Assembly (NCBI GenBank): GCA_040901865.1
Contig: JBBDYD010000142.1
Location: 22,942-86,941 of the forward strand
Direction of reading: 5' to 3'
DNA: 64,000 bases
From: Bacteroidota bacterium
GTDB taxonomy: Bacteria > Bacteroidota > Ignavibacteria > UBA10030
The notes under the pieces were generated by a model that saw only the letters and a program-made list of their open reading frames with translations, was not told the origin of the DNA and did not search any database. The stretch's first letter is position 1, and every line of letters begins with the position of its first letter. The position numbers and the translations under genes are program-made. Below, piece after piece: positions 782 through 21,132 of this stretch.

Positions 782-1336
782 GTGACAAGACCATCAGACA
801 ACGAGTTGATGCTCCAGGTGAAAGACGGAGATGTGGGGAAGCTGGGGATACTGTTTGAGCGTCACCATGGAAAGCTGTATGGGTTCCTGGTGCGCCTGAC
901 GAATCGGAGGGAGACAAGCGAGGATCTCGTCCAGGAAGTGTTTTTTCGAATTCTCCGATACCGGAGTACATTCCGGGGTGATGCTCCGTTTACTGCATGG
1001 ATGTATCAGCTTGGCAGAAATGTCATTTCGGATTATTTCAGGAAACTGAAGGAAGTGGCTCCGTTAAGCGAGGCAGAAGCCTCCGCGGATCCTGAGTCAT
1101 CGCCAGCTCACCTCCTGGAACAAATCGAACAACACGACTTGTTGCATCTTGCTCTTTCCAGATTGTCGTTGGAGAAGCGTGAGGTCCTTGTGTTGAGCAG
1201 GTTTCAAGGGATGAAGTATGAAGAAATCGGGCGGGTCCTTCAGTGCCCGGTCGGAACCGTGAAAGCGAAAGTTCATTTTGCATTGAAAGAGCTGCGAGAA
1301 ATCTATTTGGGCCTTTCGGAGGAAGCAATCCTATGA
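782..1336 (+). CDS. ECF-type RNA polymerase sigma-70 factor
   Basis: 184 aa with region-2 and region-4 signatures (LVQEVFFRI; EIGRVLQCPVGTVKAKVHFALKEL). Its stop overlaps the next gene in an ATGA junction. Confidence 0.85.
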   Translation: MTRPSDNELMLQVKDGDVGKLGILFERHHGKLYGFLVRLTNRRETSEDLVQEVFFRILRYRSTFRGDAPFTAWMYQLGRNVISDYFRKLKEVAPLSEAEASADPESSPAHLLEQIEQHDLLHLALSRLSLEKREVLVLSRFQGMKYEEIGRVLQCPVGTVKAKVHFALKELREIYLGLSEEAIL

Positions 1337-2145: not shown

Positions 2146-2154
2146 GCGACGATA

Positions 2155-2991: not shown

Positions 2992-3070
2992 TACACGCAT
3001 GTCCGCGCCTTGCTCGCGGAATTCAACACGGGCAGGCGGATTTGAAAACTTATCCTTGAGGAACAGTCCG

Positions 3071-3895: not shown

Positions 3896-3915
3896 TCTCT
3901 TCAGCGGTTTTCTTC

Positions 3916-3949
3916 GATCCCGGCCCAGGTCGGGATTTTTTTTTGCTCA
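3916..3949 (+). terminator. Rho-independent terminator (GC stem followed by a T9 run)
   Basis: The stem gatcccggcc/ggtcgggat is followed by ttttttttt. Confidence 0.7.
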
Positions 3950-4011
3950 TTGGTTTTTCCGGCAAGGATTGCTACATTCCAGAGCCCGCTGGACGGGCTT
4001 TTGGAGGCTGA

Positions 4012-5106
4012 ATGAAGACAATTCTCATAATCGAAGATGAAGCAGCCTTCCGGGAGGCAATCGCGTTTGCACTGGAAGGAGAGGGATACAAGGTGCTCCA
4101 GGCGGATAACGGCGCTGAAGGCATCGAACTGGCACGGACGCAAATCCCGGATTTGATTGTCTCTGATGTGATGATGGAGAGCGTCGATGGATATGAGGCT
4201 GTTCTGACCCTGCGCCAGGATCCCAGAACGACGGGAATTCCCATCATCCTGATGACCGGCAAGGCGAACAAAGAGGGACTGGTTCATGCGATCGAACTTG
4301 GGGCAGATGATTATCTTTCGAAACCCTTCACGGTGAGTGAGTTGATGGAAGCAATCAATATCCGCTTCAAAAAAAAGGACGAGGCACGAAAGAAGCATCA
4401 GGAAAGTTCGACCGACCCGAGATCATACGTCACCATCGGCATTCCCGGCGACCTCAGAACACCCATTGCGGGAATTCTCGGCTTTTCGAAGGCCATCAGC
4501 CGGGAGTACGTCGAAATGCGGCAAAGCGAAATTCTCGAACTGGGGAGGGCAATTCAGAGAGCGGCAAGAAATGTCCAACGTCTGACGGAGAATTTTTCAA
4601 TTTTGGCCCAGATCGAAATTATCGCCAACGATGCCGAAAAAGTGAAGGGGTTACGATCGTTCAAAACATCCGGAGTGAAGGATGTTCTCGAACCGATTGC
4701 ATTGGATCTTGCGCATCATTATGAACGAAACGACGATTTGGTCATGATGATCAGCGATTTTTCTGCGGGGTGCTCTGCCGAATATCTCTCGAAGATGGCA
4801 TTTGAACTCATTGACAATGCTCTGAAATTCTCGTCTAAAGGTCAGAAGATCCAGGTCTCCGCTCTTCCCTCGGATGGAAATTTTTCGCTGATCGTCACGG
4901 ATTTTGGCCGCGGAATGACGCCGCAGCAGATGAACGACGTCCAATCGTTTGCCACACTCCACTCACGATTGCATGAAGACCGGTTCTTTGGCTGGGGGCT
5001 TGTGGTCACAAAACGACTCGTTGAGCTTCATGGTGGCTCGCTTGTGCTCGCCAGCGCCGGGGCGGCCGGAATGATGGCAAAGATCCTTCTCCCCTCGGGT
5101 TCCTGA
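4012..5106 (+). CDS. Hybrid two-component protein: REC, HisKA-like and HATPase_c domains. The H-box histidine is replaced by glycine
   Basis: The REC domain has its Asp (DLIVSDVMM) and Lys (YLSKPF). The dimerisation box reads IPGDLRTPIAGILGFS where SHELRTP is expected. ATP-lid motifs DFGRGM and GWGLVV are present. Confidence 0.8.
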   Translation: MKTILIIEDEAAFREAIAFALEGEGYKVLQADNGAEGIELARTQIPDLIVSDVMMESVDGYEAVLTLRQDPRTTGIPIILMTGKANKEGLVHAIELGADDYLSKPFTVSELMEAINIRFKKKDEARKKHQESSTDPRSYVTIGIPGDLRTPIAGILGFSKAISREYVEMRQSEILELGRAIQRAARNVQRLTENFSILAQIEIIANDAEKVKGLRSFKTSGVKDVLEPIALDLAHHYERNDDLVMMISDFSAGCSAEYLSKMAFELIDNALKFSSKGQKIQVSALPSDGNFSLIVTDFGRGMTPQQMNDVQSFATLHSRLHEDRFFGWGLVVTKRLVELHGGSLVLASAGAAGMMAKILLPSGS

Positions 5107-6620: not shown

Positions 6621-7193
6621 ATGGCACCTCCTACGTTTTTTCTCACTCGAGATGCCAGAATCCTTGACCTGATCCGAAGGGGGGACGAAGAGGCGCTTGT
6701 CATGCTCTTCCATGATACCAGGGCCACTGTGACTGATTTGGTTCTTCGAAACAACGGCTCATTGGATGATGCCGAGGATATCCTGCAGGAGGCGCTCGTG
6801 ATCCTCTGGAAACGGGTGAGGAGCAACAAATTCGAACATGCTGCGAAACTCAGCACATTCGTATTTGGCGTGGCAAGGAACCTCTGGCTTCGGGTGCTCG
6901 CGGGTCGTAAACGGGAGCCGTTGATGCCTGTCGATTACGATCCCGCCGACACGGGCGATTCTTTCGAGGAATCCCTGCTTCGCGATGAAGAGGCGGAGCT
7001 CGTTCGGCGGGCGCTCGATACGATCGACGTATCGTGCCGGAAGTTGCTCCTTCTGTTCTATTGGGAGGAACGGTCGATGGAAGAGATTGCCGGGATCATG
7101 GGATTTGCAAATTCCGCCACAGCGAAATCAAAAAAATACCAGTGCAAAAAGCATCTTGAGGTGATTTTGAAGTCTTTCGAGGCTGATCAATGA
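6621..7193 (+). CDS. ECF-type RNA polymerase sigma factor (second copy)
   Basis: Region 2 (LQEALVILWKRV) and region 4 (EEIAGIMGFANSATAKSKKYQCKKHL). ATGA overlap with the next gene. Confidence 0.85.
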   Translation: MAPPTFFLTRDARILDLIRRGDEEALVMLFHDTRATVTDLVLRNNGSLDDAEDILQEALVILWKRVRSNKFEHAAKLSTFVFGVARNLWLRVLAGRKREPLMPVDYDPADTGDSFEESLLRDEEAELVRRALDTIDVSCRKLLLLFYWEERSMEEIAGIMGFANSATAKSKKYQCKKHLEVILKSFEADQ

Positions 7194-8140
7194 GAAACGA
7201 ACATTGGACCGACGATTCCGAGCTTGTGGAATTGTTTGTCTCGGGGAACATGAGGTCGGAACGCACAAGAGATCTTGAAGCTCACTTGGCTCTCTGCGTG
7301 TCTTGCAGAAAGATTGTTGATCGGGAAGTTCTCGTGAGGGAGGGGATACGGCTGTACGCGCGTAACACTTTGAAACGCCGACTCCGGGAACGCTTGAGCC
7401 TTATTCCTGCATCCGGTGTTCCGTGGCCGCATATTCTCAGCGCTGCCGCTATGCTGATCATCATCGTTGGAATCGGAATTCAAACGCAGTGGTGGAAGTC
7501 CGCTGAACCAACGCTGCATGATTCGGATGTGAGCCGGGCCGATTCAATACGAAGCCGCGACTACCCCGCTGCTGAACGTAGTGCTCCGCCTGCTGAGGAA
7601 CTACGGGCAGCGGCCGAATTGTCAGTGGAAGACAGGATAGACGAAATGAGGGCTGTGGAGACTGATAGACAACTCAGGAGGGAGAGTGTCCCTCATGAAA
7701 CCCAACCCTCGGCAGGTTTTGCGCAATCACATGTGCAACAAACGGGAAGTATTGTCTGGGTTACAGGAATAATCCTGACTGAAGAGCCGACCGTCGCTTC
7801 CAGGGCGGATAAGGGAATCTTCATGGCTGAAAAAGAGGTTGCGAACGTTCCGAAACAGCTTTCAAAGGACATTGCTGGTCCGAGGATTGCTGCTTCACAA
7901 AAACCGCGCAGGATGCTTCCCCTCGCGCAGCAGGCGGGGGTACTGGGGATGCGGGAAGTCGTGACAGCGCTTGAGGAGAAGAATGACTCGCTCTATATGA
8001 CCATCTTCACCGATGATCGCGAACTCCAATCTCAGGAACTTCGCATCAATCCTGTGACAGACGATTCGATAATCGTAACATCGGGCAGGGCGAGAATAGC
8101 GTTCAAAATTCCCGGCGAGATGAAAGGAAAGATTCAATGA
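7190..8140 (+). CDS. Anti-sigma factor (zf-HC2, single transmembrane segment, periplasmic C-terminal domain)
   Basis: HLALCVSCRKIV motif and the hydrophobic segment ILSAAAMLIIIVGIGI. Translationally coupled to the sigma gene. Confidence 0.65.
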   Translation: MRNEHWTDDSELVELFVSGNMRSERTRDLEAHLALCVSCRKIVDREVLVREGIRLYARNTLKRRLRERLSLIPASGVPWPHILSAAAMLIIIVGIGIQTQWWKSAEPTLHDSDVSRADSIRSRDYPAAERSAPPAEELRAAAELSVEDRIDEMRAVETDRQLRRESVPHETQPSAGFAQSHVQQTGSIVWVTGIILTEEPTVASRADKGIFMAEKEVANVPKQLSKDIAGPRIAASQKPRRMLPLAQQAGVLGMREVVTALEEKNDSLYMTIFTDDRELQSQELRINPVTDDSIIVTSGRARIAFKIPGEMKGKIQ

Positions 8141-8479: not shown

Positions 8480-9964
8480 GTGAACTTAAAGGCGGCAAAT
8501 ACGGCAAAGCCGGTAACAATCCCTGTTTCTCAAAAGGACAAAGACGCCGCAAAAATGTGTCTCGTTCTTGCTGACAAGTTTCTCAAGGAATCAAGTTTTG
8601 TGCAAGCACGGGCGGAGGTGGCCAAGGCACAAAAGCTTGACCCGACAAATCCCTATGCCTACGCGTTCCTTGACAGAATAACATATTTCGAGGAGCAGAA
8701 GAAAAAGGAAGCGCCCTCACCCGAGGCAGCAGCTCCTCCCGTTCCACAGGAAATAGAACCACCCAGGGTCGAGCCCAAGGGAACTCAAGTTTCACCTCCT
8801 CCCAAACAACCAGAACCAAAAACGGAATCGGTACCTCCAAAGCCAGGTTCACCGCCGCAAATAAAGAAGGAATCAATTCCGCCTCCCGTGGAGAAAAGGC
8901 AGGATTCACCGCCCCCGGCTAGGCCGATAGTTCCTCTGCCAACGTCCAACCCGACTCAACGGACAGCCCCGGCGGATGTCCAGAAGGCGAAACCCGAAAA
9001 CATTGTCGAAGCGTCCCGCTCCGTTATTGCCGATGTCATCGCAACAAGGGGAAAGCCCCCGGCTCCGAACAATCCGCCTGGTATTGCGGATATGCTGAAT
9101 GAGCTCTCACAGGCTTCACAACAGCATGCGCCCAATGCTCCGCGGGGAGATGTTGACTCGAAGCTGGATGAGATGAAGAGGCAGATCGAGATGCTTACCA
9201 AATCTCTCGAGCAGGAACGGGTCGTCCGGGAGGAAATGAACCAGCAACAGCTCAAGGGGGCAATCAAGCAAGTGCGAACAACGCTGGAGAAGGCATGGGC
9301 GAACGGAGCGCCAAAGGATGCGGAACTCGAGAAGCTTCATGACCTTGCGGTCAGTCTTGGAATTCCGGAAGATGTCATTCACACGTTAAATCGCGAAGTG
9401 AAGCTGGACATGTACAGCCGGGCAGTGAAGGAAGTGGTCGCAAAACAGAATCTCCTGAGAAATTCTTCAAGGACCCTCGAATGGTTACGCAAGGTGTACT
9501 CGGTATCCCTTGATGAGTATCTTGAGTACGAATCAAAATTCCTCATGGATCTTGTTGCCGATCAATATAAAGGAACCATCCTTCTGGTGTCAGGGGAGGA
9601 AAAATCGCCGAAAGACATCGGGCAAAAACTGAAGTCAATGGGATACGCTGTGGTCAACGCATCGTCGCCCGAAAATGCACTTGAAAAAATCGAAAAAATC
9701 AATCCTCATTTCATTCTTTGCGACATGGAGTTTTCGCAAGGGTATCTGAGCGGAATCAAATTCCTCCATGTGCTCAGGGCAAATTCGAAGTTCAGTTACA
9801 TCCCGTTCATCCTGTTGTGTCAACCCAATGAGGTGAGTCAGTTCAATTCTTCGGATTTGCGGCCGACCGAAGGGTTTATTGAAAAACCCTTTGAAATGGA
9901 AACACTCAATGCGGTCATGAATGAAAAATTAATGGCTTTCAGGCAATATCTTTCATCGCTGTAG
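8480..9964 (+). CDS. Pro/Lys/Glu-rich low-complexity protein with a TPR-like N-terminus and a C-terminal degenerate receiver (REC-like) domain
   Basis: GTG start with no obvious SD. Residues 60-200 are a PPxP/KPE-rich linker. The C-terminus aligns to CheY-like receivers (ILLVSGEEK...FILCDMEF...IEKPF) with Glu-Glu replacing the acidic Asp-Asp pair. Confidence 0.55.
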   Translation: MNLKAANTAKPVTIPVSQKDKDAAKMCLVLADKFLKESSFVQARAEVAKAQKLDPTNPYAYAFLDRITYFEEQKKKEAPSPEAAAPPVPQEIEPPRVEPKGTQVSPPPKQPEPKTESVPPKPGSPPQIKKESIPPPVEKRQDSPPPARPIVPLPTSNPTQRTAPADVQKAKPENIVEASRSVIADVIATRGKPPAPNNPPGIADMLNELSQASQQHAPNAPRGDVDSKLDEMKRQIEMLTKSLEQERVVREEMNQQQLKGAIKQVRTTLEKAWANGAPKDAELEKLHDLAVSLGIPEDVIHTLNREVKLDMYSRAVKEVVAKQNLLRNSSRTLEWLRKVYSVSLDEYLEYESKFLMDLVADQYKGTILLVSGEEKSPKDIGQKLKSMGYAVVNASSPENALEKIEKINPHFILCDMEFSQGYLSGIKFLHVLRANSKFSYIPFILLCQPNEVSQFNSSDLRPTEGFIEKPFEMETLNAVMNEKLMAFRQYLSSL

Positions 9965-9993
9965 GATTTATCTCCTAACGAAAGGGTGCATGT

Positions 9994-10368
9994 ATGAGCA
10001 AAGTCGTTTTGCTTGCGGAAGATGATGAAGATAACAGGGATTTGGTGCAATTTGTCCTGATGAGAAGCAAAATGGACATCGAACTGATCCTCGCGGAGAA
10101 CGGGAAGCAGGCTGTGGAGATGGCAAAAGCGAAAATGCCCAATCTTATCCTTATGGACATGCAAATGCCTGTCATGGATGGATGGACCGCCGTCCCGCTG
10201 CTTAAGGCGGATTCCAAGACCCAGGGAATTCCGGTTATTGCCTTTACCGCCCAGGCAAAACCCGAAGACAGGGCCCGCACTCACGAAATCGGATGCGTTG
10301 AGCACTATACAAAACCCATGGATCCAGAGGAATTGCTCGCTCTGATCCAGAAGTATCTAAAGGTGTAG
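9994..10368 (+). CDS. Single-domain CheY-like response regulator
   Basis: 124 aa. Motifs VLLAEDDEDN, LILMDMQMP and HYTKPM. SD present upstream. Confidence 0.85.
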   Translation: MSKVVLLAEDDEDNRDLVQFVLMRSKMDIELILAENGKQAVEMAKAKMPNLILMDMQMPVMDGWTAVPLLKADSKTQGIPVIAFTAQAKPEDRARTHEIGCVEHYTKPMDPEELLALIQKYLKV

Positions 10369-10413
10369 GAAAAGATCCTCAGCAATCGGATCACCGGTAT
10401 CAAGGAGAAGAGT

Positions 10414-13284
10414 ATGTTCAGGTCCAAGCTTTATTGGAGGGTTTTTGCAAACTTCGCGTTGCTGTTGATCCTTCTGACAGCAATGACTTTCTTGACTCTC
10501 AATATCTTGTCTCAAATCGAGCGAAGCTATGGCCTGGCGGCGGGCGATGTCAAGGTTCTGAATAACCTCCATCGCCTCACCGCGATCCTCACGGATACCC
10601 CGGTTGCCGCCGATGATTATGCGATGACACTTACCGAAGAATCCAAAACGCGGTATGAAAGCCTATGGAAAGAAATTGACGGGCAAATTGCGATGATTCA
10701 ACGCGACCTGAGCGACTCGCTGATGATTGCGTCTTTGCGCAATATCCGCGGGTACTACTTCCAGTGGATGGAAAACGTCGGAGACAAGAAGATGTTGCTC
10801 GCGGAGCAACGGGAACAAAACAAGAATTTCAATGCTGAGTTCGTTGCCCTGAGCGAGGTCGAATCACGAAACAGGTATCTCGAAAACGCCCTTTCCCAAC
10901 TTCGGGAACTTCGACGGCGCCTTGCCGGCGGTCAGACGAGAAGTATTGAACTCGCCAGCAACCTGAGCAGGACGATCGGCGATTTCATCGGTCTCGTGAA
11001 CATTCTTATAGCGGTTTTTGCCATAGCGCTCGGCTTTGTTCTCACGCGCTCCATCACAAACCCCGTCAGGCTTCTGAAGGTTGGCACCCAGAAGATGATG
11101 GCCGGGAAATTTGAGCCCATTGAGCTGAATCGTACCGATGAGCTGGGAGAACTCGCTGCTGATTTCAACCAAATGGCGGCGATGCTCGGAAACACGTATA
11201 CCCGCCTCAACGCGTATTCAGAACTGGTAACCGCCCTGAATAGTCATGTGGATATTCAAGACGTTGAGATCTACAGTCTGAATCTGATTTGTCATCATGC
11301 CAATGCAAATGTCGGAGCGCTCTACCTCTTGAACCGGCAAACCGATATGCTCGAGCTTTCTGCAGGGTATGCCCTCCGGGCGGGCGGACCGCAGAAAAGC
11401 TTCGCCATCGGAGAAGGCATCCCCGGACAATGCGCCAAAGAGCTTCGCACGGTTGAAATTTCAGACATACCCCCGGATTTGGGATTCTCCATCGATACGG
11501 GACTTGTGGAAGTGGCCCCACGGTATCTGATAGCCGCTCCGGTGATGTTCCAGGATCGACTGCTCGGCGTACTCGTGCTGGGGTCCATGGCACCCTTCGA
11601 TGAACTGAAAAAAGATATTATTCATAACTCCGTTCCGCAGGTCGGTGTCGCTCTTACGAATGCGAAGAACAATGATGCGGCCCTGAAACTCTCGCGGGAA
11701 ATTGCGGTAAAAAACGAAGAGCTGAACAAGAAGAATTCGGAGCTCGAAAAGGCCTACAGGGTAAAATCCGAGTTTCTCGCCAGCATGTCTCATGAACTTC
11801 GCACACCGTTGAACTCCATCATTGGATTCAGCGCGGTACTCCTCGGCCCGACGGGGGATCCGCTGACGGCGGATCAACACATGGCTCTCGAAAAGGTCCT
11901 GAAGAACGGCAAACATCTTCTACAATTAATTAACGACATCCTCGACTTCTCAAAACTCGAGGCAGGACGCATGACGGTCAACGTCGAGTCAGACAATGTG
12001 GCGAATATCATCTCCAACACGGTAATGACCGTTGAAATGCTTGTGAAACAAAAGGGCCTGGTGATGCGCCAGGAAATTGAACCGGGACTCCCGATCCTGA
12101 ATACAGACATTCTCAAGGTCAAGCAGGTTATTGTCAATCTTCTGTCCAACGCCGTCAAGTTCACGGAACATGGAGAGATCGTTCTTACGGTGAAAAGCGA
12201 GCCACAGGCAAGGATTTCCTTCGCTGTCAGGGACTCGGGGATCGGTATAGAGGAAAAGAACCTTCCCCTGATGTTTCAGGAATTCCAGCAGATCGACAGC
12301 AGTCATTCGAGAAAGTACAAAGGAACTGGGCTTGGCCTCCCGATCTCACGCCGGCTGGCACGGATGTTGGGCGGCGACCTCCTGGTCGAAAGTACCTTCG
12401 GCAAGGGGTCGTTGTTCACGTTGACGATTCCCGTCGTGTTTACCGTTGATGCTGTCAAAGAGATCAAGCCGGTTTCTTTGCCCCAGGCGTCCGTGACAAA
12501 GGATTTCAAAACCACGCCCATCGCACTTGCGGTCGCACGAACGATTGGGCCGGATACAGGGACAAGGATACTCTGTATTGACGACGACCCGGATGCAACG
12601 GAAATTCTGCGATCCTACCTGGTGCCCGACGGATACAATGTGACTGTTGCGTTTTCCGGTGATGAGGGAATCAAACTCGCCCGCACGATGAAACCCGCCC
12701 TTATTACTCTGGACATTATGATGCCACAGAAAGACGGATGGCAGGTGCTCCGTGAACTCAAACGGGATCCGGCAACCAAGGATATTCCGGTGATTATCCA
12801 CTCCATGATTGACAATAAGCCGCTTGCAATGTCCCTCGGGGCCATCGACGTGATGCCCAAGCCGGTCGATTCACGTCAGCTGCTCCAACGAGTCCAAAAA
12901 GTGGTCAAATCCGATGATCAATTTGTTCTCGTCGTTGACGACAATAAAGATTATACACAGGCGATGAAAGAAATGCTTGAAGTTGAGGGCTTCAGCGTTC
13001 GTGTGGCAAACAGCGGTGAGGAAGCGCTCGAGGAACTGAAGAAAGCCGTCCCAGCCGTCATCTTTCTGGATGTCGTAATGCCGGGAATGGACGGGTTCCA
13101 GGTTGTTCGCCGGCTTCAATCAAATGACGCGTGGAGGAAAATTCCGGTCGTGATCCTGTCCGGGAAAGAATTGACAGACCGGGAACGCGATATGCTTCAA
13201 TCGTCCATTACGGAAGTCATAAACAAAGATGATTCCAAGGAAGCGATAGCAAGTACAGTCAAAAGAATCCTGACATCAGTGTAA
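10414..13284 (+). CDS. Large hybrid sensor histidine kinase (TM-HAMP-GAF-HisKA-HATPase_c plus two REC domains)
   Basis: Intact H-box (SMSHELRTPLNSIIGF), N and G boxes (GTGLGLPISRRL), and two C-terminal receiver domains (ILCIDDDPD...TLDIMMP; VLVVDDNKD...FLDVVMP). Confidence 0.9.
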   Translation: MFRSKLYWRVFANFALLLILLTAMTFLTLNILSQIERSYGLAAGDVKVLNNLHRLTAILTDTPVAADDYAMTLTEESKTRYESLWKEIDGQIAMIQRDLSDSLMIASLRNIRGYYFQWMENVGDKKMLLAEQREQNKNFNAEFVALSEVESRNRYLENALSQLRELRRRLAGGQTRSIELASNLSRTIGDFIGLVNILIAVFAIALGFVLTRSITNPVRLLKVGTQKMMAGKFEPIELNRTDELGELAADFNQMAAMLGNTYTRLNAYSELVTALNSHVDIQDVEIYSLNLICHHANANVGALYLLNRQTDMLELSAGYALRAGGPQKSFAIGEGIPGQCAKELRTVEISDIPPDLGFSIDTGLVEVAPRYLIAAPVMFQDRLLGVLVLGSMAPFDELKKDIIHNSVPQVGVALTNAKNNDAALKLSREIAVKNEELNKKNSELEKAYRVKSEFLASMSHELRTPLNSIIGFSAVLLGPTGDPLTADQHMALEKVLKNGKHLLQLINDILDFSKLEAGRMTVNVESDNVANIISNTVMTVEMLVKQKGLVMRQEIEPGLPILNTDILKVKQVIVNLLSNAVKFTEHGEIVLTVKSEPQARISFAVRDSGIGIEEKNLPLMFQEFQQIDSSHSRKYKGTGLGLPISRRLARMLGGDLLVESTFGKGSLFTLTIPVVFTVDAVKEIKPVSLPQASVTKDFKTTPIALAVARTIGPDTGTRILCIDDDPDATEILRSYLVPDGYNVTVAFSGDEGIKLARTMKPALITLDIMMPQKDGWQVLRELKRDPATKDIPVIIHSMIDNKPLAMSLGAIDVMPKPVDSRQLLQRVQKVVKSDDQFVLVVDDNKDYTQAMKEMLEVEGFSVRVANSGEEALEELKKAVPAVIFLDVVMPGMDGFQVVRRLQSNDAWRKIPVVILSGKELTDRERDMLQSSITEVINKDDSKEAIASTVKRILTSV

Positions 13285-13303
13285 TTCACGGGGACATTCT
13301 GCT

Positions 13304-14425
13304 ATGAGTAACGACACAAAAATAGATCCTGTTATCCTGGTGGTCGATGATACGGAAGATAACCTCGACCTCCTGGAATTTGCGCTCAAACGAAAACCGG
13401 TACAAATGCTCAGGGCCAACAGCGGGAAAGAATGCCTGACGATGGCAAAGGACCTTCAGCCGGACGTGATCCTGCTGGATATTCAAATGCCGGAAATGGA
13501 CGGCTTTGAAACATTGAAACGCCTCCGTGAAAATCCGGCTACGGCAAAGATTCCCGTGATTTTCCTTACCGCCCAGCGAAAAGACCCCGAGAGCATCGAG
13601 GCTGGTCTCATGATGGGTGCAGATGAGTACCTGACGAAGCCGATTGATACCGACGAGCTGCTCGTTCGCACAAAAACCCTCGTTCGGTTGAAACGGATGG
13701 AGACAGAGCTGGAGCGGACGAAGGCCGATTTCATGGCAATGCTCGTTCACGACCTCCGCAGTCCGCTTGCAGGCATCAAGGATGTGATCGAATTCTTCCG
13801 GGAATTGGAAAAAGCCGGCGGCGGGTTGACTCAGGATCACTTTACGCTCCTTGCCGCCTCACAGGAATCCGCAGAGCGCATGCTTCAACTTATCAACAAT
13901 CTCCTCGATATTTCAAAATTCGAAGCCGGAAATATTACTCTTCATAAGGAATTGGTCCAGTTGCGCCAGATCGCGGAGAGAACAGCCAAACAAATGGATT
14001 TCCAATTTCGCCAGCGAAACGTCACGCTTCGCCTTGAGATTGGTGAAGGCCCGGCGGTGTCAGTCGATGCAGCAAAGGTGGGTCAAGTGTTCATGAACCT
14101 CCTCAGTAACGCTCTGAAATTCACCGGAAGCGGTGGTCACGTGGAGGTGACGATTGAGAATTCAGAAATGAAGATCGACGGACAGTTTAGGAAGGGAGTT
14201 TCGGTTTCGGTAACCGACAGTGGAATGGGAATACCGGCGGAGGAACTCCCCCGGATTTTTCAGCGGTACAAACAGGCATCGACGGCAAAAAAAGTCCGGC
14301 AAAAAGGAACCGGACTTGGTCTCGCGATTTGCAAGCTTATCGTTGAGGCGCATGGCGGAACAATCGGAGCAGAAAGTGAAGTCGGAAAATCCACGACATT
14401 CCGGTTTACGCTTCCCCTTTCATAA
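13304..14425 (+). CDS. Hybrid REC-HisKA-HATPase_c protein (response regulator fused to a histidine kinase)
   Basis: REC domain (ILVVDDTEDN...LLDIQMP). H-box (MLVHDLRSPLAG). G2 box (GTGLGLAICKLIV). Separated from the previous gene by 20 nt. Confidence 0.85.
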   Translation: MSNDTKIDPVILVVDDTEDNLDLLEFALKRKPVQMLRANSGKECLTMAKDLQPDVILLDIQMPEMDGFETLKRLRENPATAKIPVIFLTAQRKDPESIEAGLMMGADEYLTKPIDTDELLVRTKTLVRLKRMETELERTKADFMAMLVHDLRSPLAGIKDVIEFFRELEKAGGGLTQDHFTLLAASQESAERMLQLINNLLDISKFEAGNITLHKELVQLRQIAERTAKQMDFQFRQRNVTLRLEIGEGPAVSVDAAKVGQVFMNLLSNALKFTGSGGHVEVTIENSEMKIDGQFRKGVSVSVTDSGMGIPAEELPRIFQRYKQASTAKKVRQKGTGLGLAICKLIVEAHGGTIGAESEVGKSTTFRFTLPLS

Positions 14426-14443
14426 TTATTAATCGAGGACTTT

Positions 14444-15520
14444 ATGGTTGGAAGAGTACTTATTGTTGACGACGAAGACACCCTGCGCCTCACGATCAAA
14501 ACGCGCCTTGCCGCCGCCGGCTTTGAAACCAACGGTGCGGTCGATGGCGAGGATGCTCTTGAAAAGCTGAAACAATCCGCATTCGACGTTGTCCTGCTGG
14601 ACATCAATATGCCAAGAATGGACGGCATCACGGCCTTGGGACTCATCTCCGAAATGTACCCCAAAACGGATGTGATTATGCTGACAGGGTTTGCGGATTT
14701 CACCACGGCCATCGAATGCCTGAAAAAGGGAGCAAAGGACTACCTGGTGAAACCGATCGACACAACAGAGCTCATCACCCGGATGAAATCTCTGTTGCGT
14801 GCCCGGAATTCCGAAACGGCGCTGGGTGATTTGAAACGCGTCCTGAGCTCCTTCTTGCTCGACGAGGTCCTTGGGAGCATTCTCCTGGCAAATGGACTCG
14901 TCCATGCATTGAAAGGGGATAAGAGCGGGAAACTTTCAAAGGACCAAAGCCAGCTTCTTGGTTCACTTGAAGAGGGCATTCAGGGGCTTGTAGCGAGGTC
15001 GAAGGAGATGATTGATCCGACTCAACTCAGCGGAAAGTCGGCGCCTCTGCCTGCGAAAGCTGTCCTGCTCTCGAATGTTCTGGGAAATGCGATTAAGCCT
15101 TTGGAGGTTGCTGCAAAGCTCGGAGGTGTGCCTTTGAACTTCGATGGCAATGCGAAAGGTCAGAAAATTGAAGGCGACGCAGCCAGTCTTGAACGGGCAT
15201 TCCGTCATATCGTGGGGGCGGCCCTCCAATTATCCGGAAAGGGCACGACGATCGACATCAAAGAGTCAAAGTCCGGTACGCACGCTGGTGTGACGATCAC
15301 CCTGAGCAAACCCCCGGAAGGCGCTCAAAAGGCGATCGACCGAAGCCTGAAACAAGTCGACGGGGCGGGCCAAAAGGGAGCGCCGTTGGAAGACCCCGCC
15401 GTACTTCTCCTGGCAGCGCGGCAGATTATCGAAGGACATCACGGAGTGATGAAGATTCAACGAGCAAAAAATGCTGTCACAATACACTGCGAACTTCCGG
15501 TTCGGCAGAACGCGCGCTAA
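14444..15520 (+). CDS. Response-regulator receiver fused to a divergent, probably catalytically dead kinase-like C-terminal domain
   Basis: Canonical REC domain (VLIVDDEDT...LLDINMP...YLVKPI). The C-terminal 230 aa has no recognisable H, N or G boxes. Confidence 0.7.
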   Translation: MVGRVLIVDDEDTLRLTIKTRLAAAGFETNGAVDGEDALEKLKQSAFDVVLLDINMPRMDGITALGLISEMYPKTDVIMLTGFADFTTAIECLKKGAKDYLVKPIDTTELITRMKSLLRARNSETALGDLKRVLSSFLLDEVLGSILLANGLVHALKGDKSGKLSKDQSQLLGSLEEGIQGLVARSKEMIDPTQLSGKSAPLPAKAVLLSNVLGNAIKPLEVAAKLGGVPLNFDGNAKGQKIEGDAASLERAFRHIVGAALQLSGKGTTIDIKESKSGTHAGVTITLSKPPEGAQKAIDRSLKQVDGAGQKGAPLEDPAVLLLAARQIIEGHHGVMKIQRAKNAVTIHCELPVRQNAR

Positions 15521-15561
15521 TCACAGACGGTCGCCGGAAGCTGCTACCACGGCAAATTTTT

Positions 15562-16302
15562 ATGGATGAGAAGAAAACAGACATCGTGAAACTTGTGTAC
15601 CGTTTTGATTTTGAAGACGGTCCGGAGAAGGACTTTGCTATTGAGCTCGAAGCCGAATCCCTGAGCTTGATTCTCGAGGGCAACCAGCCCAAGCCCGAGT
15701 GGACACGATTGAAGTACCACCAGTGCGAGAATTGTCCATTGCCGGATTCGGTCGAATATTGTCCGGTGGCGCTGAACCTCGCGAGCCTGGTTGAGTCGTT
15801 TCAGGATTCCATTTCCTTTGAAAAAACAAAAGTGACCGTCGAAACGAAGGAACGTGTATTTGTCAAGGATACAACTCTTCAAAAGGGGCTCAGCGCTCTG
15901 ATTGGAATATACATGGTGACCAGTAACTGTCCCGTCATGGATTGGCTGCGTCCCATGGTGCGCTTTCACCTTCCGTTTGCCACATCGCGGGAAACGGTCT
16001 ACCGGGCGGTCTCCATGTACCTGACGGCACAATTCTTTATTATGCGAAAAGGGGGGGCCCCCGACTGGGATATGAGGAATCTTTCTGAGATCTACAAGGC
16101 AATCTCTGTTGTCAACCGCGGCATTTCAAAGCGGATCTCGAATGCCTCAACCAATGACGCCAATGTGAACGCTGTCGTGATTCTCCATTCCGTCGGCGAA
16201 TCCCTGCCGTACATGATCGAGAACGGACTGAATGAGATAGAACCGCTCTTTTCCCATTACGTTCGTCTATTGGAGGAATTTCAAGCTCTGTCACGGCCAT
16301 GA
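15562..16302 (+). CDS. Hypothetical cytoplasmic protein with a CxxC-x8-C motif
   Basis: 246 aa containing HQCENCPLPDSVEYCP and a further Cys. I do not recognise a family. It lies in a co-directional string with the kinases upstream and pilC downstream. Confidence 0.5.
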   Translation: MDEKKTDIVKLVYRFDFEDGPEKDFAIELEAESLSLILEGNQPKPEWTRLKYHQCENCPLPDSVEYCPVALNLASLVESFQDSISFEKTKVTVETKERVFVKDTTLQKGLSALIGIYMVTSNCPVMDWLRPMVRFHLPFATSRETVYRAVSMYLTAQFFIMRKGGAPDWDMRNLSEIYKAISVVNRGISKRISNASTNDANVNAVVILHSVGESLPYMIENGLNEIEPLFSHYVRLLEEFQALSRP

Positions 16303-16466
16303 ACCATTCTTCCCCGGATCATCCGCTTGTAACCCCTCCTGTGAGTCGCGTCACAAAACCCGGCCCCCAGATGCGGTATCCTGCTACGTTCGGATTTTCA
16401 CGCGAGCTGCCTCCTCCCACGGCTCGCGCCCCCTTCATGAATCTCTCCTTTGCGGAGTAACTACTA

Positions 16467-17810
16467 ATGCCCCAGACAGCCGGTTCAGAATACAGAATTC
16501 AGGCGCGCGATCAATCGGGGCGGGTTGTTCAGCGATTCATTTACGCAACTTCCTTTTTCCAGGCACGGAAGAAAGCCAAGACCATTTGCGAATTGAATCG
16601 CTCCATCCTCGTTTCTCTTAAGAAGAAAAGGACCTATAACTACAGCGTACGCCGCGGGAACAAGGAGATCACCGGCGTTCAGAGCGCCTACTCTCGTCAG
16701 GAAGTGATCTCGGCTCTTGAGAGGCTGGGATTCAAGGTTCGATTTGTCCGTATCGCCTTCGACTTCAAGATGGCGGCGTCCACCGGCGAGATCGTGTCGT
16801 TCATAGCCACCAGCGCCAAGCTTCTTGAACAAAAGATGCCGTACACCGAAGTGCTGCGGATTATGTCCAACAACGTGAGGGACGGGCACCTCAAGACAGC
16901 TCTTCGGGATATCATTCAGGATCTCAAGAACGGTGTCGATTCGAGAGAGGCCTTCGCCCGGCAGGGGAAGGTCATCGGGGAGCATACCGCTTTGATGCTG
17001 GGCATTGCATCCAAGAGCGGCAATATGATCTCGATTTTTCAAAGCGTCTCACAGCTTGTTGAGCGTCAGGCGGATTTCAAAAAAGGACTGACCAGCTCGT
17101 TGATTCTCCCTGCGGTGACGTCCCTGACCCTCCTTGGCGCAATCGCTTTCTATGTCGTGTATCTTCTTCCGCAAATGGCGGAAATGCTTTCCCCGATGAC
17201 ATCGACGATGCCGCCACTCACAAAGGCAACACTTGAAGTGAGTAAATTCATCCAGGAAAATATTGTCTGGCTCGTAACGTTGAGCCTTCTCATGATCGGC
17301 GGTTTCTATGCCTATCTGTTCTCTGTCCCCGGGCGAATGGCATTTCACCGGTTTGTCATTCGAGTTCCCTATATTGGCCGGATTCTCCGCAACACGAGCG
17401 TCGAGATCTTCTGCCGGGTTCTCGGTATTGTCTACACGAGTTCCGGTGAGAACATCGACGCAATTCGTCTCGCCGGCGAGGCATGCGGCAACAGGTATCT
17501 CGACAAACAGATTAAAACCATTGCGGTCCCCCTGATGTTGAAATACGGAACGGAACTTGCACACGCCCTTGAGCAAACAACGTTTTTCCCCGAAATGGTT
17601 GTTTCCCGGTTCCGCACAGCGGGAGAAACAGGAGATGTCAAGGCAACTTCGACGCAGTTGGCGGATTTTTACCAAATGGAGAACCAGTACTCCATGAAGA
17701 ACCTGGTGAGCTTCATCGAGGTTACAATTTCCATGATCATCATGGTGGCCCTCGTATTTCTTACGTATCTTTCATCGGAAACCGCCACCATCCGCGTGGA
17801 TAAGTACTGA
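16467..17810 (+). CDS. Type II secretion / type IV pilus platform protein (GspF/PilC family)
   Basis: Duplicated N-terminal cytoplasmic domain (Y.I.ARDQSGRVV; YNYSVRRGNKEITGV). The T2SSF membrane core is followed by a second T2SSF-like half. SD GGAG upstream. Confidence 0.8.
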   Translation: MPQTAGSEYRIQARDQSGRVVQRFIYATSFFQARKKAKTICELNRSILVSLKKKRTYNYSVRRGNKEITGVQSAYSRQEVISALERLGFKVRFVRIAFDFKMAASTGEIVSFIATSAKLLEQKMPYTEVLRIMSNNVRDGHLKTALRDIIQDLKNGVDSREAFARQGKVIGEHTALMLGIASKSGNMISIFQSVSQLVERQADFKKGLTSSLILPAVTSLTLLGAIAFYVVYLLPQMAEMLSPMTSTMPPLTKATLEVSKFIQENIVWLVTLSLLMIGGFYAYLFSVPGRMAFHRFVIRVPYIGRILRNTSVEIFCRVLGIVYTSSGENIDAIRLAGEACGNRYLDKQIKTIAVPLMLKYGTELAHALEQTTFFPEMVVSRFRTAGETGDVKATSTQLADFYQMENQYSMKNLVSFIEVTISMIIMVALVFLTYLSSETATIRVDKY

Positions 17811-17812
17811 CC

Positions 17813-19597
17813 GTGAAGAAACCCAAGAAAGAATTCGGCGAAGTCCTTATTGAGAAGGGTATCATTACACCTGATATCCTCCTGAACGCCCTTGATACGC
17901 TCAGTAAGGAGACCCAGAAGAACAGGCGCAAGCTTCCGCAGGTTCTTGTCGAGGATTACAATGCCGACCGGAACAAAGTCTATCAGCAGGTTGCAGATTT
18001 TTACGCATTCAAAACGCTTGATATGGCCAAGTATACGATTGACGATACAGTGCTGGCGTTCGTGCGAAAGGAACTCACCGGGCTGCCGGTTTCAATCCGC
18101 GAACTTGCCGTTGAACACCAGGTGCTTCCGTTCATGGTCGATCCGGAAAACCCGGAACGCTTGTTTGTCATTACACCCGATCCGACAAAATCACCTGTTC
18201 ACCTGATCGCGCGCACATTTCCGTATCGGAAGTTTGAAATCTTCTATGCGAACTTTGATCAGTACGATGATCTCTGGAAGCGCGTTAATATCGGGCGGTC
18301 AACGTATAAGGATAAGGAGTCATCACTCCGCAATGAATCGTCGTTGTCCGGAATTGAAGAGGACGCAGAGCTGTACGAACAGGTCCTTGAAGAAGAGATC
18401 AATCGGAGCGGACTTGTAGATTTGGTGGAGAATATTTTCATGGATGCCGTGAGGACCGGTGCCAGCGACATCCACGTCATTCCGCGTGGCGAACGCACGA
18501 CGGAATTCCACTTCCGGGTCGATGGGAAGCTTTCTCTCTGGTACACCCACTCGGAGTCGAGAGCTGAAGCCGTTGCGGCGGTGGTGAAGGACCGGGCGAT
18601 GAACATAGACCGGTTCGAACGCAATACGGCGCAGGATGGGTTTGCGCAATTTATCATCGACAAGCGAACTGTGCGATTCAGGGTTTCGGTGATCCCGGTT
18701 GTCGGAAAAGAACTCAGAAGCAAGCTTGAATCGATCGTCATTCGTGTCCTTCAGGAACCGACCGTTGGAAACTCAATTGAAGAACTGGGATTTGAGTCCT
18801 ATTCGCAGGAGAGTTTTGTCAAGGCGATCAAAAAGCCGTACGGTATCGTTATCGTCACCGGACCGACGGGAAGCGGAAAGAGCACGACGTTGGTGGCGGC
18901 TCTGCGAGCGGTGATGGATTCAACCGTGAATGTGATTACGGTTGAGGACCCCGTTGAATACTTTATCGATGGAGCAAGACAGGTCAAGCTGAATCCCAAA
19001 CTTGATTTCGAGGGAGCATTGAGGGCGATTCTTCGCCACGACCCCGATATCGTCATGGTGGGTGAAATCCGCGATCAGATTACCGCAAACATCGCGGTCA
19101 AGCTTGCGAACACAGGCCATCTCACGTTCTCGACGCTGCATACAAATGATGCTCCCAGCGCTATTTCGCGGCTGTACAAAATGGGTGTTGAACCATTCCT
19201 GCTCGCCTATTCGATCAACATAGTTCTGGCCCAGCGTCTTTTGCGCAAGCTCTGTACAAAATGCAAGAGCCCGATCAACGAGCCGGATGTTGAAGCTCTC
19301 AAGCGGATAGGATTGACTGAAACGGAAATCAAGGAGTCGACATTTTATCGGGCGATCGGTTGTAACGATTGTCATGGCGGATACAAAGGGCGCAAGGCAA
19401 TTCACGAAGCCCTGTATTTCACAAAAAATATTCGAAAGATCATCCTTGCGGCAGAAGGATTGGTCGATGATGAAAAACTGCGCGCGCAGGCGATTGAAAA
19501 CGGAATGAAAACTCTGCGGCACGCCGCGCTCGGACTGCTGAAGAACGGCATTACATCGCTGGAAGAAGTCGCCAGCGCCACGGTGGAGGATGAATAG
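17813..19597 (+). CDS. Type II/IV secretion ATPase (GspE/PilB family) with an N-terminal T2SSE_N/MshEN-like domain
   Basis: GTG start 3 nt after the pilC stop. Walker A (GPTGSGKST), Asp/His boxes and a tetracysteine motif (CTKCK...CNDCHGGY). The N-terminal FGEVLIEKGIITPDILLNALDTL matches the T2SSE_N fold. Confidence 0.85.
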   Translation: MKKPKKEFGEVLIEKGIITPDILLNALDTLSKETQKNRRKLPQVLVEDYNADRNKVYQQVADFYAFKTLDMAKYTIDDTVLAFVRKELTGLPVSIRELAVEHQVLPFMVDPENPERLFVITPDPTKSPVHLIARTFPYRKFEIFYANFDQYDDLWKRVNIGRSTYKDKESSLRNESSLSGIEEDAELYEQVLEEEINRSGLVDLVENIFMDAVRTGASDIHVIPRGERTTEFHFRVDGKLSLWYTHSESRAEAVAAVVKDRAMNIDRFERNTAQDGFAQFIIDKRTVRFRVSVIPVVGKELRSKLESIVIRVLQEPTVGNSIEELGFESYSQESFVKAIKKPYGIVIVTGPTGSGKSTTLVAALRAVMDSTVNVITVEDPVEYFIDGARQVKLNPKLDFEGALRAILRHDPDIVMVGEIRDQITANIAVKLANTGHLTFSTLHTNDAPSAISRLYKMGVEPFLLAYSINIVLAQRLLRKLCTKCKSPINEPDVEALKRIGLTETEIKESTFYRAIGCNDCHGGYKGRKAIHEALYFTKNIRKIILAAEGLVDDEKLRAQAIENGMKTLRHAALGLLKNGITSLEEVASATVEDE

Positions 19598-19603
19598 AAC
19601 CCC

Positions 19604-20128
19604 ATGAACCTCGGTCAAACAATGCTCAGTGCCGCGACGCTCGTCGTCCTGGCGGTGCTCGTGCTCAATGCCAATCGCATGATTGTCCAGGGTGAACAGG
19701 ACATTGTCAAAGGCGAGACCTTCGATATCGCGGTGAATTATGCCCAGGCATTGCTGACAGAGATCAGCAGAAGGAAATTTGACACATATTCTGTTGATTC
19801 GGGATACCAGGCGACTTCGGACTTTACATCACCATATTCCCTTGGTCCGAATTCAGAGGAGTTGTCACTGGTCAGTCCCTGGCCCGACGTGGCGCCCTTT
19901 CGGTCCAAATACGCCTACGACGACGTCGATGACTATCACGGCTATCAACGCACTATCAATGTCGACGTGGTCCAGGGATTGAAGCTGTGGGGTGAGGTGT
20001 ATTATGTAACCAATACGAATCCGAATAGCAAAACCACTACGAAAACCTACTTCAAACGCGTTATTGTCTACGCCCAACACCCCTCGTATCTCAACACCAT
20101 TTCTTTCAGCACGCTGGTTACAAACTAG
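19604..20128 (+). CDS. Small exported protein with an N-terminal hydrophobic helix (pseudopilin/minor-pilin-like candidate)
   Basis: 174 aa. MNLGQTMLSAATLVVLAVLVL resembles a class III (prepilin) leader plus hydrophobic helix but has no canonical G-FTLIE. Starts 7 nt after pilB. Confidence 0.4.
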   Translation: MNLGQTMLSAATLVVLAVLVLNANRMIVQGEQDIVKGETFDIAVNYAQALLTEISRRKFDTYSVDSGYQATSDFTSPYSLGPNSEELSLVSPWPDVAPFRSKYAYDDVDDYHGYQRTINVDVVQGLKLWGEVYYVTNTNPNSKTTTKTYFKRVIVYAQHPSYLNTISFSTLVTN

Positions 20129-20680
20129 ATGGGCGTCATGCTTGATCTTGTTGCGTCAATGGTTGTGCGTGGAGCGATTGTGTACATCGTTCTGACAATG
20201 AACATTTCGCTGAACGAATTGCTCTATGAGAAGGCTCAGTACGCCATCGTCAAACAAAACACGGCGACGATGTCGGATGTTCTCCGGAATGATTTTCGAT
20301 ATATCGGATACGCTGTCTCGTCAGGAAACGCGATCCTGATAGCAGACTCCAATCAAATAAAATTCCAGGGGGATATCGACAACAACGGTGTTCTCGACAC
20401 CATGCACTTCTATATCGGACTTGTCACCGAGATGGCCGGCACGCCCAATCCTTCAGACCGGATTATCTATCGTCGCCGCAACTCCGGTACGCCGTTTGTT
20501 TTCGGGCATGGGGTGACGCAGTTCCTTCTCACTTACTATAAAGCAAACGGCAATGTCACGACCAGCCTCGGCGAGATCAAATCGCTCAAAGTGAGGATCG
20601 TTGTTCAAGGGGAACAGGAAATCAACCGTTATTATCCCACGAGCATCTGGGAAGCCTACCTCCAGCCATCGAATATATAA
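20129..20680 (+). CDS. Second small protein with an N-terminal hydrophobic helix (pilin-like candidate)
   Basis: 183 aa. MGVMLDLVASMVVRGAIVYIVL. Starts on the nucleotide after the previous stop. Confidence 0.4.
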   Translation: MGVMLDLVASMVVRGAIVYIVLTMNISLNELLYEKAQYAIVKQNTATMSDVLRNDFRYIGYAVSSGNAILIADSNQIKFQGDIDNNGVLDTMHFYIGLVTEMAGTPNPSDRIIYRRRNSGTPFVFGHGVTQFLLTYYKANGNVTTSLGEIKSLKVRIVVQGEQEINRYYPTSIWEAYLQPSNI

Positions 20681-21097
20681 TCCCCCATCCTCATGGGTAA
20701 CGCGCGGTCCAACGGGTTGCTGAAGTCATTCGTTCCAAATATAGGCAGGGCAGATGGCCAATGGGGCGGTTGCCCTGGCGGTCTTCCAGATGGGAAATTC
20801 AAAGCCTGCGGCGCTCCCCACTCCCGCGGGGCGGCCCATGTTTGGAGGCGTTGCAAGTTACGCGGTTGATGATCAGGGACTCCTCCAAATGAAGCCAGGA
20901 TCAACGGACGCGGGGTGTTTAACGGCCACACCGTTGTCCGCGAAGCAGTCATTTGCCTGACCTCAACTCAATCTGTCAGCAAGAAAAAGAAGTGGAGTAA
21001 TTGGGAGACTGTGAAGGCGACTACCGGATTCGAAGGATCAGAGTACACGAATCAATATCTGACCGGAAGTTAGCAGTATAAATGTTGGCAGGAACAA

Positions 21098-21132
21098 GGC
21101 CGGCGCCCAAGCGGAGCGCCGGCTTTTTTTTT
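21098..21132 (+). terminator. Strong rho-independent terminator (ggccggcgc..gcgccggc followed by T9)
   Basis: 9-bp GC stem followed by ttttttttt. Lies about 420 nt after the last pil-cluster CDS and abuts the stop of the minus-strand gene 21131-21850. Confidence 0.75.

Follow-up and report, generated by a model that had tools for sequence, protein, structure and literature searches.

A receiver-rich phosphorelay beside motor, platform and minor-pilin genes of a divergent type IVa pilus-like system in an uncultured Ignavibacteria-like bacterium

The DNA analysed here, hereafter the window, is a 64-kb stretch of a 91.5-kb contig from an uncultured Ignavibacteria-like bacterium that carries the NCBI label "Bacteroidota bacterium" and whose closest relatives are labelled Ignavibacteriales. 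It contains a two-component signalling cassette followed by genes for type IV filament machinery, and we compared this locus with about 170 related loci; the fetched loci total 1.9 Mb. An earlier note on the same DNA had described nine open reading frames (ORFs) running in one direction between 9994 and 20680. We recovered all nine at these positions on the plus strand, separated by 45, 19, 18, 41, 164, 2, 6 and 0 nucleotides (nt), and Pfam and NCBIfam scans agreed with the domain content that had been claimed for them. Two genes had been overlooked: g0, at 8480-9964, and a degraded third pilin-like gene at about 20694-21073. Compared to the closest relative, the ratio of nonsynonymous to synonymous substitution (dN/dS) was 0.02-0.12 for genes of the locus (PilC 0.02, PilB 0.035, I 0.06, J 0.10), with dS of about 1. 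Ratios this low mark them as genuine genes kept by purifying selection. Our preferred reading, in which we have moderate confidence, is that two conserved modules are now neighbours here, a six-gene phosphorelay (8480-16302) and a pilC-pilB-minor-pilin sub-operon of a divergent type IVa pilus (T4aP)-like system, with the rest of the machine encoded elsewhere.

The T4aP set consists of PilB, PilC, PilT, PilMNOP and PilQ, with the minor pilins FimU-PilVWX as priming complex. At our locus, the pilus genes begin with a PilC/GspF-type inner-membrane platform protein (16467-17810, plus strand; 447 amino acids, aa), which contains two T2SSF domains (PF00482, E = 1e-27) and scored 145 bits with the GspF model and 131 bits with the PilC model of NCBIfam, both under their cut-offs. 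The next gene (17813-19597, plus strand) encodes a PilB-type extension ATPase of 594 aa (T2SSE, PF00437, E = 1e-103). Its best NCBIfam match was PilB (TIGR02538; 440 bits against an equivalog cut-off of 675), compared to 385 bits for GspE, which was also below its cut-off. The ATPase carries a tetra-cysteine zinc motif (CxxC...CxxC) and aligned over its full length to the PilB structures of Myxococcus and Geobacter (3jc8, 5zfr). The combination of T2SSE domain and tetra-cysteine motif, like the two-repeat platform, is that of a T4aP. A PilB-type ATPase with a PilC platform bears out the earlier assignment of the module to type IV filament machinery.

The view that this is not a standard T4aP, type II secretion system (T2SS), mannose-sensitive haemagglutinin (MSHA) or tight adherence (Tad) locus held up as well. 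The T2SS components GspG (PF08334), GspC/L/M and GspD were absent from the window and from related complete loci. A Tad/Flp assignment was rejected, with only 45.6 bits for the TadA model compared to 440 for PilB, and CpaF structures as distant matches (E = 1e-8). For MSHA, the deciding feature was the N-terminus of the ATPase, where EFGEVL had been read in place of the Arg-Leu-Gly that binds cyclic di-GMP (c-di-GMP) in MshE; in our alignment EFGEVL indeed stands opposite RLGELL of Geobacter PilB. Set against the MshEN motif RLGxx(L/V/I)(L/V/I)xxG(L/V/I)(L/V/I)...Q, the window sequence, EFGEVLIEKGII, also lacks the terminal Gln, and the MshEN model NF053729 gave 20.5 bits against a 38-bit cut-off. 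The c-di-GMP-binding Arg was absent from all but one (L138, RIG) of 24 compared family members, which had EFG, ELG, DLG or KIG motifs. Gating by c-di-GMP through an MshE-type domain was rejected because the Arg is absent and the model score is low.

Two small ORFs follow pilB. I (19604-20128, plus strand) encodes a GspI/PilV-like minor pilin with a presequence of at most four residues (MNLG/QTML), and J (20129-20680, plus strand) a leaderless GspJ/PilW-like minor pilin that begins MGVMLD. Neither matched any Pfam or NCBIfam family, including the pilin families. Structure prediction, which had been proposed as a check on these two proteins, returned pilin folds. The AlphaFold models were confident (predicted local distance difference test, pLDDT, of 83 for I and 87 for J), and both showed an N-terminal helix of about 55 residues (residues 2-57 in J) followed by an antiparallel sheet. 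The closest solved folds were GspI for I and GspJ for J, at a sequence identity of about 10-14%, and the only significant Foldseek matches of J in the PDB were XcpW/GspJ, with E values from 4e-4 (5bw0_A) to 6e-3. From these models we predict that both adopt a pilin fold, I of the GspI/PilV type and J of the GspJ/PilW type.

I and J share one reading frame with a single TAG between them (…LVTN*MGVML…), and the J ATG abuts the I stop. Read-through or fusion of the two was rejected, as the junction differs in other loci (a 1-nt overlap in another frame in L002, a 67-nt gap in L004); we take the shared frame to be coincidence plus translational coupling. The third minor-pilin gene, K, is GspK/PilX-like and a pseudogene in the window (about 20694-21073, plus strand); tblastn recovered it as fragments that are spread over three frames and interrupted by a stop. 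It is intact in L004, L012 and L013, where it encodes about 150 aa beginning MGNARVIFVGAVSVILGLY. Compared to the intact L012 gene, the window copy has lost its transmembrane helix through a 73-nt deletion and carries two 1-nt deletions besides. An assembly artefact was rejected, since an independent Logan assembly of the same run was identical. The gene order I-J-K is that of the T2SS tip/priming complex and of the PilV-W-X set of T4aP.

Some relatives have more elaborate sets of these genes. Two I-J-K triplets were present in L117, L119, L127, L132, L143, L149, L156, L162 and L170, mostly in tandem (on opposite strands in L119) and in some cases distant from any pilB or pilC. This suggests interchangeable tip complexes, perhaps ones whose K-like heads (340-420 aa) differ in what they adhere to. 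In a word-indexed search, the J-like relative furthest from the window protein (33% identity; L008:2984-7110) also stands in I-J-K order, followed by a protein with a weak DUF4402 match and two further small proteins, and with a partial 626-aa ORF upstream; this locus may be another variant of the pilus system.

The starts of I and J leave no room for a conventional prepilin leader. An in-frame stop lies two codons before the I ATG and zero codons before the J ATG. Among the fetched loci, five or fewer in-frame codons separated the upstream stop from the conserved N-terminus in 57 of 96 I-like genes and 30 of 76 J-like genes. A class III signal peptide, defined by a basic leader with Gly at -1, Phe or Met at +1 and Glu at +5 and by a match to N_methyl, was not found, and a conventional leader can be excluded. 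The J-like family comprises 1042 clusters at 50% identity, from a profile search that covered 1.84 billion cluster representatives, and its N-terminal register was read on the top 149 matches. Nearly all of these align from residue 1; the first acidic residue is at exactly position 6 (M-x4-[DE]) in 84, and residue 2 is small in 86. Methionine aminopeptidase removes the initiator Met when residue 2 is small. Removal of the Met is therefore predicted, and we infer that the Asp or other acidic residue of J would then be residue 5, as in canonical pilins. The I-like proteins start more variably (MNLGQTML, MGQTMIT, MSFNQTML, MNTMQMLL), with a Gly that is not invariant, and the putative major pilins found in relatives start MGQQQLLLIILGV or (TTG)PSQSTILL. 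For I and the major types, a presequence of two to four residues may be cleaved.

Pilin detection depends on the N-terminal motif. No Pfam or NCBIfam model matched any of these pilins (I, J or the major types), and the only named member found was a "hypothetical protein" of a Balneolaceae metagenome-assembled genome (MAG). There was no prepilin peptidase in the window, nor inside the complete clusters of four relatives (L118, L131, L132, L147). A literature search for leaderless pilins was without any paper, and one on Ignavibacteria pili gave nothing specific beyond the genome paper of Melioribacter roseus. That paper reports pilT, pilQ, pilB and pilC and no pilA or pilD (PMC3534657), which is the expected result if the pilins escape standard detection. 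The pilC-pilB-I-J-(K) block belongs to a large, uncharacterised T4aP-like lineage. We tentatively suggest that this is an undescribed lineage of the Fibrobacteres-Chlorobi-Bacteroidetes (FCB) group (Ignavibacteriota, Balneolales and relatives), whose leaderless pilins need no prepilin peptidase, whose J proteins have their acidic residue at position 5 after Met removal, and whose assembly is gated by a receiver-rich phosphorelay ending in DUF6901. In surveys of the type IV filament superfamily, a prepilin peptidase and a class III signal peptide are regarded as universal (PMC6668835). If the suggestion is true, pilin maturation can be bypassed, reports such as "pilA and pilD not found" in Melioribacter would be explained, and an entire group of environmental bacteria has pilins that escape current models.

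The signalling cassette comprises g0 to g5. Its first gene, g0 (8480-9964, plus strand; 494 aa), encodes an N-terminal helical or tetratricopeptide repeat-like segment, which a long Pro-rich linker and a coiled coil separate from a divergent receiver at the C-terminus (REC; Response_reg, residues 367-479, 34 bits) whose acidic pocket reads as SGEE instead of DD. This protein resembles FrzS-type pseudo-receiver scaffolds in layout only. The g0 stop lies 29 nt before g1, and g0 orthologues precede the REC-histidine kinase genes in every cassette-bearing locus examined. g1 (9994-10368, plus strand) is a stand-alone CheY-like receiver of 124 aa (Response_reg, E = 2e-23) with the canonical DD, D54, T85 and K107. 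g2 (10414-13284, plus strand) is a 956-aa membrane hybrid kinase with the Pfam architecture HAMP-GAF-HisKA-HATPase-REC-REC, an intact H-box (SHELRTPL), N-box and G-boxes, and two canonical receivers; its top NCBIfam match was HrmK, at 333 bits and under the 725-bit cut-off. g3 (13304-14425, plus strand) is a 373-aa REC-HisKA-HATPase kinase (Pfam) with the H-box VHDLRSPL, intact catalytic boxes and a canonical receiver. g4 (14444-15520, plus strand; 358 aa) combines a canonical receiver with a degenerate kinase-like half. We regard g4 as a pseudokinase because the positions of its H-box (LDEVLGSI) and N-box (RHIVGAALQLS, Asn lost) are degenerate and only Response_reg was detected, with no HisKA or HATPase match; in other lineages, the orthologous position is taken by a true REC-HATPase or a shorter REC protein.

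With two intact kinases in g2 and g3, and receivers in g1, g3, g4 and g2 that have the DD...D...T/S...K set, the cassette has the makeup of a two-component phosphorelay. Neither a histidine phosphotransfer (Hpt) domain nor an output domain (DNA-binding, GGDEF/EAL or other) was detected in g0-g5 by Pfam or by reading of the sequences. Any control would therefore most likely be exerted through protein-protein contacts, by analogy with PilG/PilH, FrzS and similar receivers.

The cassette closes with g5 (15562-16302, plus strand), which encodes a 246-aa DUF6901 protein (PF21842, E = 3e-86; 288.8 bits against a 27-bit cut-off). Its invariant residues are C55, C58, C67 and C123 (CxxC...C...C) and His136 within RFHLPF (alignment A5). 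We found 1861 clusters of DUF6901 homologues, about 55-60% identical between phyla, in MAGs labelled Ignavibacteria or Bacteroidota, Nitrospirota, Acidobacteria, Binatia and delta-proteobacteria. The genes nearly always adjoin two-component genes. In Nitrospirales and Binatia, DUF6901 genes commonly stand apart from any cassette, at times followed by genes for other kinases, and such genes are also found in delta-proteobacterial MAGs. A structure search found no relative in the PDB, and a literature search no paper. The recurrent pairing of the cassette with pilus genes offers a first genomic and functional context for DUF6901, a very highly conserved family without a described role, and we know of no earlier description of this six-gene architecture with its REC-pseudokinase and DUF6901 protein.

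The 164-nt gap between g5 and pilC contains a perfect CRP/FNR-type palindrome, TGTGAGTCGCGTCACA (TGTGA-N6-TCACA; 16340-16355, unstranded), some 110 nt ahead of pilC; the window holds no second perfect match. The palindrome is kept in all close relatives, which have the gene order described below as type A. In the 1.9 Mb of loci, 11 of 12 perfect matches occur at the same position in type-A relatives, and the palindrome was absent before pilC in the other arrangements. It is the probable operator of a separate pilus-operon promoter. The earlier note had all nine genes running directly on as one unit, which is doubtful given that this gap carries a conserved putative operator and so implies a separate pilC promoter. 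A membrane protein that binds cyclic nucleotide monophosphates (cNMP) is encoded at 31821-32747; it is not a transcription factor. The pilC leader also holds a hairpin (16401-16428, plus strand; local fold of -15.3 kcal/mol) with an anti-Shine-Dalgarno-like loop, CCUCCUCCCA. The CCUCCC loop, about 54 nt before the pilC ATG, is kept in 8 of 9 type-A loci with differing stems, and for the structure of this leader RNAalifold gave no consensus and Rfam nothing relevant. As a lead only, the hairpin could mask the GGAG ribosome-binding site. At the other end, a GC-rich hairpin followed by T9 (21099-21132, plus strand), kept in L012, is a probable intrinsic terminator that would close the pilus operon and be shared with a convergent gene.

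To see how often the two modules occur together, we surveyed the cassette in 80 species-representative genome loci, in which only 2-3 kb upstream of g0 was visible where pilus genes were absent. The full g0-g5 cassette was present in 34 loci, and pilus genes adjoined it in 15 of these 34. In type A, to which the window, L010, L012-L018, L020 and L093 belong, the cassette is followed by pilC-pilB-I-J-K. In type B (L019, L031, L050, L052, L054, L059, L060, L097, L105 and L163), pilC-pilB, an extra gene for a REC-coiled-coil protein and I come before the cassette. Pilus operon and cassette are convergent in type E (L099), whereas in type F (L107) the pilus operon and an incomplete cassette run in divergent directions. 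The extra type-B protein of about 265 aa (for example L019:858-1661, L052:1509-2309 and L060:738-1526) has a canonical receiver and a coiled-coil or dimerization and histidine phosphotransfer (DHp)-like tail. Its gene lies between pilB and I wherever pilus genes precede the cassette, and the protein is a candidate for a direct adaptor between phosphorelay and motor. Functional coupling is supported because the linkage recurs in four gene orders, including loci whose surroundings differ from those of close relatives (L010, L099, L107 and L163). We consider the case for a functional link between cassette and pilus to be good but short of conclusive. Part of the conservation can be put down to simple collinearity, as the haem operon downstream is also syntenic in the closest relatives.

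A working model can be drawn from this arrangement. The first module would be a receiver-rich phosphorelay, with g0 as pseudo-receiver scaffold, g1, g2 and g3 as kinases and receivers, g4 as REC-pseudokinase and g5 as the DUF6901 protein. The second (16467 to about 21130) would supply the platform, the extension ATPase and a filament-priming tip complex formed by I and J, with K inactivated here. The phosphorelay would act at the post-translational level: either a phosphorylated receiver or the pseudokinase would bind to PilB, to PilC or to a polar scaffold, and this binding would switch pilus assembly on or off. Transcription of the pilus operon would be set by a cNMP- or redox-responsive CRP/FNR regulator. 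The pairing of a pilus motor with an output-less six-gene phosphorelay offers a concrete, testable case of post-translational control of such a motor.

Several points weigh against our reading of two linked modules. Nineteen of the 34 cassette loci had no pilus genes in view, with about 2-3 kb visible upstream of g0, and the cassette is not specific to pili. Protein-protein contacts and co-transcription are predictions. The system may be changing or decaying, because K is a pseudogene in the window and absent in L002. In the 64 kb covered of the 91.5-kb contig, no further part of the machine turned up, which leaves some probability to a truly reduced system. Finally, a scan for sigma-70 promoters and terminators was uninformative, with counts near shuffle expectation; the phylum probably uses promoter types other than the sigma-70 consensus scanned. 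The first of these points also bears on the earlier proposal of a filament machine under dedicated phosphorelay control. Its core gained support, since linkage that recurs in at least four arrangements is stronger than adjacency, but "dedicated" is too strong a word because g0-g5 is an autonomous module, seen also in loci that show no pilus genes, and DUF6901 is in turn found outside the cassette.

It is possible, although we consider it unlikely, that the two modules are neighbours without any functional link, the cassette serving general signalling (for example redox or metal sensing via DUF6901) and the pilus standing under a CRP/FNR-type factor. The frequency of the cassette without pilus genes and of DUF6901 without the cassette would fit this, as would the conserved operator in the largest gap of the locus, and the synteny of the downstream haem operon in close relatives indicates that local gene order is conserved generally. 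However, the linkage persists through at least four rearrangements with differing flanks (L010, L099, L107, L163), type-B loci place an extra receiver protein between pilB and I, and complete pilus loci of distant relatives also have a receiver beside the secretin.

The locus had also been described as stripped-down, as nothing in the 64 kb was thought to encode a secretin, prepilin peptidase, PilM/N/O/P or retraction ATPase. This absence was confirmed: all sizeable ORFs of the window were scanned, and none matched a secretin, A24 peptidase, PilM/N/O/P or PilT. Searches of the window by tblastn and hidden Markov model (HMM) with the corresponding proteins of complete relatives were negative, and for a major pilin, PilT, PilM/N/O and secretin, tblastn, a purpose-built HMM and a motif search all came back empty.

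Distant relatives gave a different picture. A metagenome scan with the I-like alignment yielded 80 loci, from at least 211 relatives. In L118, L131, L132 and L147, I-J-K (some as two sets) occur together with one to four major-pilin-like genes, PilC, PilB and a second ATPase that passes the PilT/PilU cut-off (323.7 compared to 319.1 bits). These loci also encode a PilM/N-like fusion of 515-527 aa, a PilO-like protein and a 410-aa secretin (PF00263, E = 2e-27), and in L131 and L147 a stand-alone receiver lies in the cluster with the secretin. The putative major pilins are 127-140 aa long, contain an RPxx(L/M)GGGGxSF motif and have no Pfam or NCBIfam match; they are encoded in up to four tandem copies in L132 (4164-6605), and also in L131 (8812-9195), L165 and L118 (506-898). 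Major-pilin-like genes were present nearer to the window system as well. In the close relatives L014 and L017, one lies divergent and just upstream of g0 (L014:2059-2574, minus strand; L017:1807-2250, minus strand), and in the cassette-only locus L043 one lies 8 kb downstream (L043:18806-19219).

Because the homologous systems of distant relatives are complete, "stripped-down" most likely means split and not minimal. The window most likely holds one sub-operon (motor, platform and priming pilins) of a split, scattered system, and we infer that the remaining parts (major pilin, PilT, PilM/N/O and secretin) are encoded elsewhere in the genome. Scattering of type IV pilus genes over the genome is the rule in many bacteria. 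A self-sufficient, stripped-down machine made up of nothing but platform, ATPase and two or three pilin-like proteins is decidedly improbable. Under dedicated phosphorelay control, it would build a short pseudopilus, periplasmic or anchored in the inner membrane, and would do so with no secretin, retraction ATPase or alignment complex. It would account for the lack of any other pilus component in 64 kb, for the C-B-I-J-(K) block being all that is seen beside the cassette in about 25 related loci, and for purifying selection on its proteins. It does not account for distant homologues of I/J/K, PilB and PilC that sit inside complete T4aP-like loci, for the major-pilin-like genes near the cassette in L014, L017 and L043, or for pilT and pilQ reported elsewhere in the related Melioribacter genome (PMC3534657), and on these grounds the description as stripped-down is probably wrong. 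The value of the locus lies more in its leaderless pilin family, the recurrent linkage to the cassette and the first context for DUF6901 than in a reduced gene set.

That the I-J-K tip and a GspE/F pair drive a T2SS-like pseudopilus piston for protein export, and not a surface pilus, is highly improbable. In its favour, the best structural matches of I and J are T2SS minor pseudopilins, the window is without a retraction ATPase and GspF is the top-scoring NCBIfam model for the platform. Against it, GspI/J/K are homologous to PilV/W/X and have more solved structures, and the ATPase scores higher with PilB than with GspE and can be aligned over its full length to PilB structures. Two hallmarks of T4aP, a PilT-family ATPase and a PilM/N fusion, are present in the complete relatives, which have no GspC/L/M, and the Cytophaga "T2SS" differs from the window system in its canonical GspG and its A24 peptidase (PMC5553014). 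The same two genes led us to reject membership of the Cytophaga/Bacteroidetes "T2SS", since GspG is recognisable by Pfam in that cluster and the window system has neither. Otherwise the Cytophaga hutchinsonii cluster (chu_3191-3201) is alike in belonging to the FCB group, in being divergent and T4aP-derived, and in having poorly recognisable minor pilins and PilM/N/O-like proteins. This Cytophaga "T2SS" clusters with T4aP according to Denise et al. 2019, where the window pilus lineage is not mentioned.

Among known systems, the T4aP of Myxococcus xanthus, Pseudomonas aeruginosa and Geobacter are alike in having a PilB with tetra-cysteine motif and MshEN-like N-domain, PilC, and PilV-W-X as counterparts of I-J-K; in the complete relatives the likeness extends to a PilT-family ATPase, PilM/N, a PilO-like protein and a PilQ-like secretin. 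In contrast to these T4aP, the window system has pilins without an N_methyl or pilin match or room for a leader, an ATPase and platform below equivalog cut-offs, no peptidase in the window or the four complete loci, no c-di-GMP-binding Arg, and genes that are split and stand beside a phosphorelay. GspI-GspJ-GspK (XcpV-W-X; PDB 3ci0, 5bw0, 6utu) are alike in folds, gene order and a larger K without the N-terminal acidic residue, whereas the window proteins are only about 10-14% identical to them, have no prepilin leader, have no GspG/H/C/L/M/D nearby and include K as a pseudogene. Receiver-based control is known from the Pil-Chp proteins PilG/PilH of Pseudomonas, from FrzS/FrzZ and PilSR of Myxococcus and from the HrmK hybrid-kinase network of Nostoc hormogonia, and the likeness lies in stand-alone receivers, a coiled-coil pseudo-receiver and hybrid kinases together with type IV pilus motors. 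Unlike these systems, the window cassette is without CheA, CheW, a methyl-accepting chemotaxis protein, a PilR-type sigma-54 activator or a recognisable Hpt domain, and it also exists without pilus genes.

The remaining ORFs of the window encode extracytoplasmic function (ECF) sigma factors, a von Willebrand factor A (vWA) protein, a haem-biosynthesis operon, a nuo operon, DnaK, ClpB, UvrA and others. Upstream of g0, at 782-5106 and 6621-8140, are genes for an ECF sigma factor, a zf-HC2 anti-sigma factor with HEAT repeats, two DUF4097 "toastrack" proteins, a REC-histidine kinase (4012-5106), the vWA protein (encoded on the opposite strand), another member of the sigma-70 family and a protein of 316 aa without a family.

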